Shown: positions 8,923-15,007, counted from the first letter of the stretch. The stretch: 41,002 nt of DNA from an uncultured Lachnospiraceae bacterium (GCA_965646165.1 CBFFYP010000040.1:1-41002); one strand, 5' to 3'. Numbers and translations are program-made. The notes: generated from the sequence alone by a model not told the origin.

Positions 8923-8970
8923 TAAAAAGAAAAACTTTTAATTTGAGTGTAAAATGGGCAAAGGATTTTT

Positions 8971-10083
8971 ATGAAAAGAAAAGTATATGAAGTGATGCAT
9001 AAAGATAGAAGAGTAGCCAGAATAGATGAAATTGGACAATGTAAAATATATTATAAATCGTTTATGCCATATAACTTATATTTGGAAGAAGAGAGTGATA
9101 TAGATACATTAATTAATAATATAACAAATTTTAATTATTGGTGTGCAACTAGAGTTTTGACATTAGATAGGAAATATGCAAAGGAAATATTAAATAGTAT
9201 TGGAATGTTACAAGCGGTTACAGATAAAGAAAGAGCAAAAATAGCATTAACTTACCGCTGTGCTTCATTGACCGATGTTTTTTGGGTAAAGCAAAAAAAA
9301 GAGCGCGTTACTTTTGACGAGATAAATTTGTATGATAATCATTTAGATAATACATTTGTTGATGTTGCTTTAAGGGGGAAACAATATATGGTTCAGAATC
9401 AATCTTTTGTTAGAGATTTAACAACAAATGGATCTTTTCCAAAGGCATGGCAACGAGTAAAAGGCAGTTTTCGATTATTAAAAAATGGAGGAACAGACGC
9501 TGTAGAAAGAGAATTGCTTGCAAGCCGGATATGTCGGTGTTTTTTGGTTTCACAGGTATTTTATGAAGAAGATTATTTTGATGGAGAAAAAATTACGGTA
9601 AGTGATAATATAACATCAAAAGACAATTCTATTGTTTCGATGGAAGCATTTGAAATTTATTCTCAAAATCATAATAAAGATACAAAAAAATATATATTAA
9701 AACTGGATCGATATAATTATTATATGATGAATATTATAGATTATCTTGTAGGAAATACAGATAGACATTGGGGAAATTGGGGTGTTTTAATTTCTAATGC
9801 CAATAATAAGCCGATATGTCTTCATAAATTAATGGATTTTAATAAAGCATTTTATGCTTATGATTCTTTAGAAGGAGCAAACTGTCAAACTGTGTTTGGA
9901 AGAAATATAACACAAAAAGAAGCAGCCTTAGAAGCAGTAAAACAGATAGGATTAAATCAAATAAAAGAAGTAGAGCAGGAAGTATTTTTAAATTTGCCGC
10001 AATATTATGAGATGTTTCTAAAACGCTTGGAAATTTTAACTTTTTATAGCAAGGAGTCTTCCTCCTCTAAGTTGATGAGATAA
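8971..10083 (+). CDS. HipA-like Ser/Thr kinase-fold protein (orphan, AT-rich)
   Basis: Catalytic-loop-like GNTDRHWGNWGVL (HipA xNTDxHxKN), following LMDFNKAFYAYD (HipA APAYD/DFG-like), and upstream G-x-x-P-K (GSFPKAW) P-loop-like motif. Markedly lower GC than its neighbours. Confidence 0.5.
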   Translation: MKRKVYEVMHKDRRVARIDEIGQCKIYYKSFMPYNLYLEEESDIDTLINNITNFNYWCATRVLTLDRKYAKEILNSIGMLQAVTDKERAKIALTYRCASLTDVFWVKQKKERVTFDEINLYDNHLDNTFVDVALRGKQYMVQNQSFVRDLTTNGSFPKAWQRVKGSFRLLKNGGTDAVERELLASRICRCFLVSQVFYEEDYFDGEKITVSDNITSKDNSIVSMEAFEIYSQNHNKDTKKYILKLDRYNYYMMNIIDYLVGNTDRHWGNWGVLISNANNKPICLHKLMDFNKAFYAYDSLEGANCQTVFGRNITQKEAALEAVKQIGLNQIKEVEQEVFLNLPQYYEMFLKRLEILTFYSKESSSSKLMR

Positions 10084-10110
10084 ATTGCAGTAAAGATAAG
10101 TTTTTTGGAA

Positions 10111-10162
10111 TGGGGGGACGCCAGAACAGAAAAAGTATCTCCAAAAGCCTAATTAAAGCATA
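10111..10162. repeat. Family-1 fragment (GGGGGGACGCCAGAACAG...TATCTCCAAAAGCCTAATTAAAG)
   Basis: The TATCTCCAAAAGCCTAAT(T/G)AAAG tail is identical to 588-610 of copy A. Starts with the GGGGACGCCAG hallmark 28 nt after the stop of the previous gene. Confidence 0.5.
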
Positions 10163-10199
10163 CAAAATCAATGCTTGTCACAATATAGGATTTGTGGTA

Positions 10200-13600: not shown

Positions 13601-13890
13601 TGGATAGTAAAAATGGAGATATGAAAACCGGTTGGCAGCAGACAGCGGACGGCAAATGGTATCTGCTGGACAGTAAGAATGGAGATATGAAAACTGGTTG
13701 GCAGCAGACAGCAGACGGCAAATGGTATCTGCTGGACAGTAAAAATGGAGATATGAAGACTGGCTGGCAGCTTGTGAACGGAATTTGGTATTACTTAACG
13801 TTATCTGGTGAAATGGCTAAAAATACCATTACTCCAGATGGTTATAAAGTAGGAGAAGATGGTGCATGGATGGGTAAGCAGGTTTCGTAA
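10636..13890 (+). CDS. Secreted cell-wall-anchored multidomain protein. Signal peptide, CA-clan papain-like Cys/His/Asn domain (putative), BspA-type leucine-rich repeats (LRR_5), about five tandem Cys/His-rich HxHxWS...HWHEC...CxxCGY modules, Ser-rich linker, seven choline-binding-type cell-wall-binding repeats.
   Basis: N-terminal hydrophobic signal. GGVGCVAFAY...HSVIVL...NYKKSIHWG (Cys216, His261, Asn279). LRR_5-like IPSSVEKIGSSAFRN / IPGSVESIGNDAFRDC repeats. Repeated HWHEC/HWREC modules. GWQQTADGKWYLLDSKNGDMKT repeated seven times. Confidence 0.85.
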   Translation: MRKHTNCIISLSMAFVVLLSTMGTAFKLTESTKAIEPNNQLDSIKSDSVGQSVPSGGALTVTIHEHRWSEQWECDEEYHWHECEAENCPIINNDEKDGYEAHSYGDGEAYTEDGQYYFVQDDNVCIQCLYSKAVEKPVQMKMRAVTTTTYPTYQQAYEKMISLKEKAPSVAAYNEPLSEGTTWTNLTPFGSSSSVEYYAYKGGKIKGAIGGVGCVAFAYILSDEVFGNLPARVIDRGTEEFTFENVKVSDILRVNGNSHSVIVLEKTAGGVIVAEGNYKKSIHWGRAMSKDEVMTADYIVTRYPKGYMEENPDADVVEETNKGTIGNITWTLTNSGTLTISGKGAMPDFSESRPPWYEKTFRVIVIEEGITSIGDYAFYQEKGKSSVHSLYIPSSVEKIGSSAFRNSNLVSADIPGSVESIGNDAFRDCENLTSVTLNEGIKIIGSEAFRACTSLNYIDFPASITTINFGAFMSCGLTRARFAPGSQKVVLGDSVFTQCWYLEEVSLPENLESLPKGIFESCKSLFSLYIPKSVTEIGAGAFTSSSYLSEIIFGGTKSEWNAILSKSLVADKIQIQNATVTCEGKPEDFVERHTHTWSQEWTTDEVGHWHECTASNCDGATKDYAEHDWSWKKDNTHHWRECTACGEKKDSAEHNYKDGICECGATEAESENPAPKPHEHEWSTEWIHNGTHHWRECMNPNDCNGEKGDYAEHHYEGNKCTECGYTKSESEEPPAAQHEHKYSSSWFHNNEYHWHECMNQIGCDGTKGSYEEHQFENGTCKKCGYIETGSVNPPVSDTHVHAWSASWSHDSSYHWHECEADGCSLTDNREKAGYQAHNYGSWVVDVRATSYRDGSRHKECTVCHYRLVEKIPATGSSSNDQSSSSSSTSSDTTEENSNASSAATTEKAETSWSNTADGKWHLLDSKSGKIKTGWQQTTDGKWYLLDSKNGDMKTGWQQTADGKWYLLDSKNGDMKTGWQQTTDGKWYLLDSKNGDMKTGWQQTADGKWYLLDSKNGDMKTGWQQTADGKWYLLDSKNGDMKTGWQLVNGIWYYLTLSGEMAKNTITPDGYKVGEDGAWMGKQVS
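13384..13760 (+). repeat. Six near-identical 60-bp tandem DNA repeats encoding the cell-wall-binding repeats
   Basis: Units ACCGGTTGGCAGCAGACAACAGACGGCAAATGGTATCTGCTGGACAGTAAAAATGGAGATATGAAA differ only at a few third-codon positions. Confidence 0.9.
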
Positions 13891-14138
13891 TCAAAAGTTA
13901 CAAATAAGAGTAAGGAAATAAAGGATGAATGCCTCAAAGTATGGTATTAAGAAATTTGGTAAAATATCTGCCAAAGTAAAGATACCATGGTTTGGGGCAT
14001 TTGTTCTAAAATCTATTGCCATGCCGGACGCAGGAATCCAAAGAAAGATCCACTGATAATAAAGAATTTTAAGAAATTAACACTTGATTTTCTTTCATAA
14101 TTGTGATATCATACCATTATGAAAGTTGGTGTGACGAT

Positions 14139-14816
14139 ATGGTAAAGGATACAGATTTGACCAAAGAATATTACAAAAGTGGGGAAGTAGCCAAAATGAT
14201 TGGAGTTAGTACAAGAACAATACAGAATTATTGTATCCATGGTTTACTTTCAGAAATTTTTGTGAATAAAAGACGCTTGATTCCGAAAGATTCTCTGATT
14301 GCTTTTTTAAAAAACAAACAACTTTATGTGGAAACAGAAACTAATCGAAAAGATATTATTTATGCAAGAGTTTCTACGCATAAACAAAAAAACAGAGGCG
14401 ATTTAGAAAGACAAACACAAAATATAGCACGGTTTGCAATCACGCAAAATCCAAAGGATTTAGAAATTATATCGGAAGTAGGAAGTGGTTTAAATGATAC
14501 CCGTAAAGGATTAACGAAATTGATTACGTTAGTCCAAGAGGATAAAATAGCCCGTATTTTTATCAATTACAAAGACAGGCTGACTCGGTTTGGTTTTCAT
14601 TACTTGCAGCTAATCTGTGATTTCCATAAAACAGAAATCGTAGTTGTAAGTACAGAAACAGAAGATAAAACAATGTCAGAAGAACTTGCAGAGGATATCC
14701 TCTCGATTATCCGTTCTTTCTCTGGAAAATTGTATGGACTACGAAAAAAAGTAAAAGAAGACATTTGCATAGAACTGGAAAAAGAAATGGAGAAGGAAAA
14801 AGAGAATGATTTCTAA
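14139..14816 (+). CDS. tnpA: IS607-family serine recombinase transposase TnpA (MerR-like HTH + resolvase catalytic domain), orphan
   Basis: HTH GEVAKMIGVSTRTIQNYC. Catalytic YARVSTHKQKNRGDLERQ (serine recombinase S-R motif). No intact tnpB downstream. AT-rich. Confidence 0.8.
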   Translation: MVKDTDLTKEYYKSGEVAKMIGVSTRTIQNYCIHGLLSEIFVNKRRLIPKDSLIAFLKNKQLYVETETNRKDIIYARVSTHKQKNRGDLERQTQNIARFAITQNPKDLEIISEVGSGLNDTRKGLTKLITLVQEDKIARIFINYKDRLTRFGFHYLQLICDFHKTEIVVVSTETEDKTMSEELAEDILSIIRSFSGKLYGLRKKVKEDICIELEKEMEKEKENDF

Positions 14817-15007
14817 TATTTTTAAGGAAAGGAGCGAAAGACCATGTTACTAGAACAAGTTGAGAAAACAGCTTGGAACAATCAAATGTATAAACTGTAA
14901 TTTCTTGAATTTTTCAAGAAGTATAAACTGTAAACTGGGAAAAAATAAGGAAATCGTTTTTCATTATGAAAAAAGGTTTTAATAACGATAAACGAGGAGA
15001 AAAAACA

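Follow-up and report, generated by a model that had tools for sequence, protein, structure and literature searches.

A lineage-specific, probably mosaic island between the MVP-like gene and pncB of an uncultured Lachnospiraceae bacterium

The stretch of DNA analysed here (GCA_965646165.1, CBFFYP010000040.1:1-41002; 41,002 nt, hereafter the window) belongs to an uncultured Lachnospiraceae bacterium and carries, between an MVP-like gene and the nicotinate phosphoribosyltransferase gene pncB, a segment that is a real lineage-specific mosaic island of an ordinary accessory kind. The segment combines a stand-alone gene for a predicted HipA/CtkA-fold kinase, a gene for a surface protein with leucine-rich repeats (LRR) and the remains of two insertion sequences (ISs). 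We consider it quite probable that this is a permissive spacer which received two cargo genes of separate origin and, later, two unrelated ISs that decayed. An earlier note on the window, made from its sequence alone, had described an AT-rich island whose surface-protein gene arrived as the cargo of an insertion. Its gene content and coordinates were essentially right, as judged from the list of open reading frames (ORFs) and family scans, and its island stands; the role given there to the mobile elements does not. The parts are as follows.

8923 to 14990, no strand: the island itself, ~6.1 kb of lineage-specific DNA that separates the MVP-like gene from pncB, delimited by blastn against the sister locus L105.
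8971 to 10083, + strand: monocistronic gene of a putative HipA/CtkA-fold kinase of 370 amino acids (aa), characterised with AlphaFold2 (AF2), Foldseek, a family profile and the G+C content at third codon positions (GC3).
10272 to 10512, + strand: TnpB gene relic, covering residues ~195-300 of ~388 in three frames with stop codons and including the RuvC-II motif (IAVEDLNVKGMMK).
10630 to 13890, + strand: gene of a 1086-aa surface protein with a putative signal peptide, six HWHEC modules, BspA-type LRR_5, a Ser-rich linker and C-terminal choline-binding repeats.
13295 to 13822, + strand: tandem 66-nt units encoding the six 22-aa choline-binding repeats, found by repeat search.
14035 to 14938, + strand: IS607-family element (0.9 kb) with an internally deleted tnpB, made of a left end, tnpA, a fused tnpB stub and a right end.

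Comparison with other species carries the island assignment. MVP-anchored searches led to the corresponding site in four contigs of one sister Lachnospiraceae species (L105-L108, e.g. GCA_948964755.1), whose MVP homologs have 77% identity (P0243). Their gene order is polA - coaE - ftsA/mreB-like - MVP - [364 bp] - pncB - thiM - thiE - thiD - thiC - HD - PPIase - acetyltransferase - GH2, and the window has the same order plus the island segment. The blastn alignment of L105 to the window gives collinear blocks at 3555-6228, 6412-8844, 14991-16452, 16477-16659 and 16748-20559, with flanking proteins 70-94% identical between the two species, and finds no match in L105 for window positions 8845-14990. 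In the sister, the 364-bp spacer holds a terminator-like hairpin and T run behind MVP and, ahead of pncB, a promoter-like site (TTGACT-N17-TATACT); compared to the window, it displays no similarity and no scar. The earlier note had named this comparison as the one that could overturn its island, if related genomes had the same genes at normal G+C content (GC), and the comparison favoured the island instead. Within the species, every contig reaching far enough carries the same arrangement, island included (L001-L007). The MVP scan of genome contigs gave a single locus, from a third species (L008, ~81% identical to L105 in DNA). There MVP is followed by a fragment of an IS200-type tnpA and by an IS110, and the contig ends in this IS debris ~1 kb further on. 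The different content after MVP in related lineages indicates that the MVP-pncB spacer repeatedly accepts insertions. The island is not integrated at a tRNA gene: no tRNA was found in the window, no direct repeats flank the island and there is no integrase, the sole recombinase being the IS607 TnpA. A pncB-anchored metagenome scan gave 80 loci (71-77% identity), none of which shares any window neighbour, and is uninformative on the island boundaries.

The composition of the segment is not atypical throughout. Relative to a window mean GC of 0.397, 1-kb windows give 0.29-0.32 at ~9000-10500 and 0.32 at ~14000-15000, with 0.39-0.45 across 10500-14000. The sharp fall in GC reported from the end of MVP to the start of pncB is thus present at the two edges, in the HipA-like gene and in the IS607 copy, but not in the 3.3-kb surface gene; the AT-rich patches are only two, ~8971-10600 and 13900-15000 (GC 0.29-0.32). 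Against a background GC3 of 0.351 +/- 0.045 (minimum 0.234) in 29 other window genes, the HipA-like gene has the lowest value of the window (0.197) and tnpA has 0.267. The surface-protein gene, at GC 0.418 and GC3 0.341, lies at the window background. Its relative synonymous-codon score (0.077) is close to that of tnpA (0.080), while all other + strand genes score 0.14-0.28.

The first gene of the island had been called HipA-like and lacking a hipB-like partner, and fold, profile and neighbourhood checks agree with both statements. Taken alone, the 370-aa protein reaches 14.2 bits with Pfam HipA_C, for which the cut-off is 30.5; it gives a sub-threshold PI3_PI4_kinase match and a hit to CtkA in the PDB (E=2e-3), all of them on the catalytic loop GNTDRHWGNWG. 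The match to the candidate PDC-M03A in PADLOC is likewise confined to this loop, and Pfam and NCBIfam scans of the sequence by itself assign no family. The family is large, with 2823 homolog clusters in a 90% database, the top 120 at 71-82% identity, and clustering at 50% leaves 1957 representatives. In a profile built from 74 diverse members, K171, E181, D264, H266, N269 and D289 are conserved; the profile hits CtkA with E=1.1e-10 over 124 residues, followed by PI4K type II and HipT. Pfam HipA_C is matched by 63 of the 74 members (E<=0.01, best 1.6e-8) and HipA_2 by 36 of them. An AF2 model from a shallow alignment (71-81% identity) had a mean predicted local distance difference test (pLDDT) of 44.7 and was discarded; the fold search is based on the model from a diverse alignment (pLDDT 90, predicted template modelling score 0.89). 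HipA, CtkA and HipT structures make up all of its top 30 Foldseek matches in the PDB, with template modelling scores of 0.5-0.6 at full length and probability 1.0, the best being HipA 4pu5 (2.8e-7), with CtkA at 9e-7. The modelled structure thus identifies the protein as HipA-like at the level of fold, with the catalytic Asp/Asn and the Mg-binding Asp present, and we infer that it is active as a kinase.

No ORF encoding a helix-turn-helix (HTH) protein occurs in the 48-bp gap between MVP and the kinase gene or in 10084-10629, and six other contexts of the kinase family show no consistent HTH or HipS-type partner. Monocistronic HipA homologues such as YjjJ and HipL are known (PMC8262856), so the missing HipB is not unusual in itself. 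Across six species the family sits in unrelated neighbourhoods. In L011, L012 and L014 the GC3 of its genes is host-like; the copies in the window, L009 and L017 fall 0.13-0.18 short of their hosts. Shifting contexts and this low GC3 speak for repeated horizontal transfer and a foreign origin of the copy studied here, whose extreme AT-richness points to horizontal acquisition. The idea that MVP and the HipA-like protein form a functional pair was rejected, as their genes are neighbours in this species only. As a separate observation, in two other species, at L012 (9001-13175) and L014 (120-4054), a HipA-fold gene with host-matching GC3 lies directly upstream of feoA-feoA-feoB, and one of these copies follows a gene for an iron-dependent repressor.

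These data bear on the better of the two alternatives to a mosaic island gained in this lineage, namely that the common ancestor already had the kinase and surface genes in the MVP-pncB interval, that the sister lineage lost them by deletion and that the ISs are incidental. Such an ancestral region would fit the fixation of the island in all sampled contigs of the species and the host-like GC of the surface gene, and no outgroup fixes the polarity. We nevertheless regard it as unlikely: the HipA-like gene is 0.18 in GC3 below its neighbours while resident copies elsewhere match their hosts, its nearest relatives (77-80% identity) sit upstream of feoAAB and not at MVP, the sister spacer has a clean MVP terminator and pncB promoter, free of any scar or island similarity, and the third species carries yet other content after MVP. 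From these we infer the direction as gain by insertion here and not loss in the sister.

The product of the second cargo gene is a wall-associated LRR protein of a type ordinary among Firmicutes. No IS end brackets the gene. Pfam LRR_5 (9e-42, 142 bits, cut-off 27.7) and Choline_bind_3 (1e-28, 99 bits, cut-off 27, in six stretches) are well matched, and the PspC/PspA-like C-terminal matches in NCBIfam are all far under cut-off. The choline-binding repeats would hold the protein non-covalently on the cell wall, where it probably acts as an adhesin. The copy number of the 66-nt unit varies within the species, L004 having a product of 1050 aa and L002 one of 1072 aa, a difference of one unit. Six Cys/His-rich modules (H-x-W-x3-W-x3-D/N-x3-H-W-H/R-E-C ... 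C ... Y-x-x-H) occupy residues ~67-110 and 598-870; neither these modules nor residues ~150-330 have a Pfam match. The surface-protein gene of the earlier note is there, but at 1086 aa its product is large rather than giant.

The IS607-family element downstream of the surface gene contains these features.

14139 to 14816 (alternative GTG start at 14103), + strand: intact IS607 tnpA, encoding a serine recombinase with an N-terminal HTH and the catalytic motif YARVST.
14084 to 14112, + strand: left-end sequence resembling a promoter of tnpA (TTGATT, 17 nt, TG-TATCAT), from a consensus scan.
14844 to 14900, + strand: residual ORF of 18 codons (MLLEQVEKTAWNNQMYKL) in which the first 7 codons of tnpB are fused to codons near its 3' end.
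14888 to 14933, + strand: right-end module, with the repeat GTATAAACTGTAA at 14888-14900, a hairpin at 14902-14920 and the repeat again at 14921-14933.

Identification of TnpA as an IS607-type serine recombinase agrees with the match to NCBIfam NF033518 (175.3 bits, cut-off 110); Pfam places HTH_17 at residues 23-72 and Resolvase at 85-216. The protein is 88-90% identical to TnpA of complete copies that have tnpA and tnpB (406-aa TnpB), found at one site in L018-L023 and at another in L024. With a dN/dS of 0.08-0.09 against these copies, the window tnpA is under purifying selection and selectively maintained. The sequence that may serve as its promoter is conserved in L018 and L024. The gene had been described as an orphan, which is not borne out: it is part of an IS607 copy whose right end is conserved and whose tnpB was lost by an internal deletion of ~1.2 kb. 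In blastn searches, L018 and L024 match the window with 85% identity over 14054-14865, a stretch that runs from the subterminal left end through tnpA and the tnpA-tnpB spacer into the first 7 codons of tnpB. The match then skips ~1.2 kb to the last tnpB codons and the right end (14887-14932). The junction of the deletion lies at ~14863-14865 (GTTGAGAAAACAGCTTGG) and a second deletion, of 55 nt, at ~14887. The internal deletion also took most of the omega-RNA scaffold.

The ends of the element follow what is known of IS607, which has GG at its termini and target, makes no target duplication and has subterminal repeats bound by TnpA, tnpA alone being sufficient for transposition (PMC6188088). 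In a three-way alignment of the right ends of the window, L018 and L024, similarity stops just past ...AAACTGT(N3-5)GG. GG is found at window positions 14033-14034 and 14937-14938, and the L018 and L024 copies start and end with GG. The window copy has no terminal inverted repeats and no duplicated flank. The earlier note had proposed a search for the other end of the IS607 unit; the subterminal left end was found, conserved from 14054, but its outermost tip, 16 nt common to L018 and L024, is not recognisable in the window. With 16-19 nt at this end thus unconserved, the left boundary would lie between 14035 and 14054; the right end is conserved up to its junction.

At the right end, the short direct repeats and the 8-bp palindrome noted earlier at 14893-14945 do exist, with a range a few bases off and another meaning. 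The exact 13-mer GTATAAACTGTAA occurs twice, and between the two copies lies an inverted repeat with an 8-bp stem and a 3-nt loop, TTCTTGAA ttt TTCAAGAA, which is not a strict palindrome. A shuffle test of the 13-mer is unimpressive, 25 of 100 shuffles reaching >=2 matches at <=2 mismatches. We take the repeats as real since the same repeat-hairpin-repeat is conserved in two independent complete IS copies, L018 and L024, immediately after the tnpB stop. An inverted repeat also links the two ends, 14898-14912 pairing with 14065-14079 of the left end. The repeats and hairpin are the architecture of an IS607 right end and not insertion scars; they probably provide TnpA-binding motifs and the omega-RNA tail.

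The remains of the other IS lie between the kinase and surface genes, where 546 bp (10084-10629) have no long ORF. TnpB is the RNA-guided nuclease of OMEGA systems. Translation of this region gives IAVEDLNVKGMMK in one frame, a lysine-rich stretch in another and many stops. A blastn search of plasmids returned 12 records for window ~10392-10512, each under an annotated TnpB gene. Two of the matching TnpBs (Agathobacter rectalis and Clostridium botulinum) directly follow IS607 tnpA genes and, used as tblastn queries, give collinear high-scoring segment pairs in three frames on 10272-10512, with sum E values of 3e-4 to 2e-3 on the whole window. The stitched relic peptide has no significant match to Pfam OrfB_IS605 (E=4.5) and yields nothing in tblastn against plasmids; the relic is detectable only by blastn at the DNA level and by tblastn with real TnpBs. 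By these alignments it is a genuine remnant of ~240 bp, ~27% of a TnpB. A decayed tnpB had been claimed here and is present; its assignment to the IS605 type is unproven, the matches being TnpBs of IS607-type elements, and an IS607 rather than IS605 origin may be considered. No tnpA, left-end or right-end remains were found beside the relic. Both the relic region and the 144-bp spacer after the surface gene are without similarity to any of the loci fetched from other species. The TnpBs of L018 and L024 give nothing by tblastn at 10272-10512, which indicates that the two ISs carried unrelated TnpB types.

IS-mediated delivery of the surface gene, as first suggested, would require that two TnpB-type ISs in the same direction bracketed it and that a serine-recombinase excision circle of the form IS-gene-IS integrated between MVP and pncB; the relic at 10272-10512 and the IS607 copy at 14035-14938 do flank the gene in the same orientation, the best relic matches are TnpBs of IS607-type elements and the synonymous codon usage of the gene is atypical, yet we hold this composite to be very improbable, since the unrelated TnpB types imply ends that are not cognate for one TnpA, the relic has neither tnpA nor end remains, the right end and subterminal left end of the IS607 copy exclude the surface gene and the HipA-like gene, outside the bracket, stays unexplained.

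We thus favour the mosaic island in a permissive spacer. The stand-alone HipA/CtkA-fold kinase gene would have been acquired horizontally and the BspA-type LRR surface-protein gene would be a second cargo gene of separate origin. Two unrelated TnpB-carrying ISs would have landed later in the non-coding stretches of the island and then decayed. The first would survive solely as the ~240 bp of frameshifted tnpB between the kinase and surface genes. The second would be the IS607-family element, placed ~70 bp upstream of the likely start of pncB, from which ~1.2 kb of tnpB was removed internally. The ISs would then be secondary colonisers of the spacer and not the vehicle of the surface gene. Several points weigh against this history. 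The window kinase by itself fails Pfam HipA_C. The GC of the surface gene is normal, and codon usage is the one feature that would mark it as foreign. The tip of the IS607 left end is unrecognisable, which leaves the exact left boundary and the residual mobility of this copy uncertain. None of the more distant relatives obtained offers an informative MVP-pncB junction as an outgroup, and loss in the sister lineage is a minority possibility.

The genes bordering the island are the following.

6382 or 6424 to 8922: MVP-like gene (MVP_shoulder), from family scans.
Longest ORF from 14966: pncB (nicotinate phosphoribosyltransferase), from the ORF list and family scans.

Homology with the sister resumes on the right-hand side only at the ribosome-binding site of pncB (AACGAGGAG, 14991), and for this reason the start of the gene is probably the ATG at 15008 and not 14966. 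A promoter scan between the IS607 right end and pncB gave no convincing pncB promoter. The pncB promoter and MVP terminator of the sister have no counterpart in the window, from which pncB would now be transcribed by read-through; this suggests that its native promoter was lost to insertion. The MVP ORF of 846 aa has no match in an exact-protein look-up, and other callers start it later (829-832 aa). In window 4443-8922, the MVP-like gene (MVP_shoulder, Vault_3) forms a pair with the gene of an FtsA/MreB/PilM-like ATPase of 597 aa, and three related species conserve this pair (L105, L008, L109 and L111 are among the loci). There are >5700 homolog clusters. More distant MVP homologs (65-66% identity) sit on phage-like contigs and are unusable as an outgroup; each of the homologs is near a Band_7/SPFH gene. 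One such contig carries RecT, SSB, Dam, Gad2 and an Apyc1-like gene, and the other, of 171 kb, has genes for a NAD-dependent DNA ligase and an RNA ligase. Downstream of pncB, a thiamine pyrophosphate (TPP) riboswitch at 16511-16621 precedes thiM-thiE-thiD-thiC and is 89% identical in the sister.

Elsewhere in the window, a repeat of ~280 nt, in which terminal inverted repeats enclose a terminator-like core (GGGCTAAACACGCCCCTTTTTTT), occurs three times, at 250-545 (-), 20470-20760 (+) and 36190-36480 (-). Shorter versions of ~200 nt are found in intergenic regions of the sister (L105 14320-14530 and 18980-19200), and the repeat looks like a miniature inverted-repeat transposable element. The window end cuts a HEARO RNA (IscB-associated omega RNA, RF02033, 98.6 bits) at 40853-41002, where an IscB element probably starts.

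The analysis is mainly an annotation clean-up, which turns an AT-rich island with an orphan transposase into defined parts with boundaries. All parts belong to known kinds, and the HipA-fold family alone has some wider interest.

The element at the right edge shares with the IS607/IS1535 family a serine recombinase with the HTH before the catalytic domain, GG junctions, subterminal repeats common to both ends and the lack of terminal inverted repeats and target duplication. Its close relatives have tnpB directly downstream of tnpA, whereas only an 18-codon stub is left here, which makes the element a deletion derivative. Derivatives of IS607 with tnpA only (the experimental IS607orfA) are known to transpose (PMC6188088); the mobility of the window copy is uncertain, its outer left end not being conserved. 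It is a natural tnpA-only IS607 derivative with a transposase still under purifying selection. Compared to TnpB, the relic upstream keeps the lysine-rich linker and the RuvC-II E motif in the correct order and orientation; it has >=2 frameshifts and several stops and is devoid of RuvC-I, Zn finger, RuvC-III, omega-RNA and IS ends.

The surface protein has the 20-22-aa repeats of choline-binding proteins (pneumococcal PspC/CbpA and PspA) and the LRR_5 of BspA-type LRR adhesins (Tannerella BspA, HupY/LrrG), both above the Pfam cut-offs. Outside those modules there is no likeness to these proteins, and the HWHEC modules and the N-terminal region have no Pfam family.

The kinase shares with the HipA superfamily (E. 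coli and Shewanella HipA, H. pylori CtkA, HipT, YjjJ/HipH, HipL) its predicted fold, the D-x-H-x-x-N loop and the Mg-binding Asp. It differs by an identity of only 10-15%, by a HipA_C score below gathering and by the absence of any partner or extension of the HTH, HIRAN or HipS type. The best sequence match is to CtkA, although the latter acts as an effector that a pathogen secretes. We put forward, tentatively and at somewhat less than even odds, that the 370-aa protein represents a distinct, unnamed clade of the superfamily, monocistronic, lacking a Pfam model of its own and conserved in thousands of Lachnospiraceae lineages, yet mobile between genomes. Such antitoxin-less conservation, if true, would favour a regulatory or defence kinase over a classical persistence toxin. 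A HipA-fold family that is large, well conserved, antitoxin-less and confined to gut Lachnospiraceae would be a reasonable target for functional work on bacterial Ser/Thr kinases. Like YjjJ and HipL, the window kinase is encoded without a neighbouring antitoxin gene; unlike typical toxin genes, its family is 71-82% identical across many Lachnospiraceae species.

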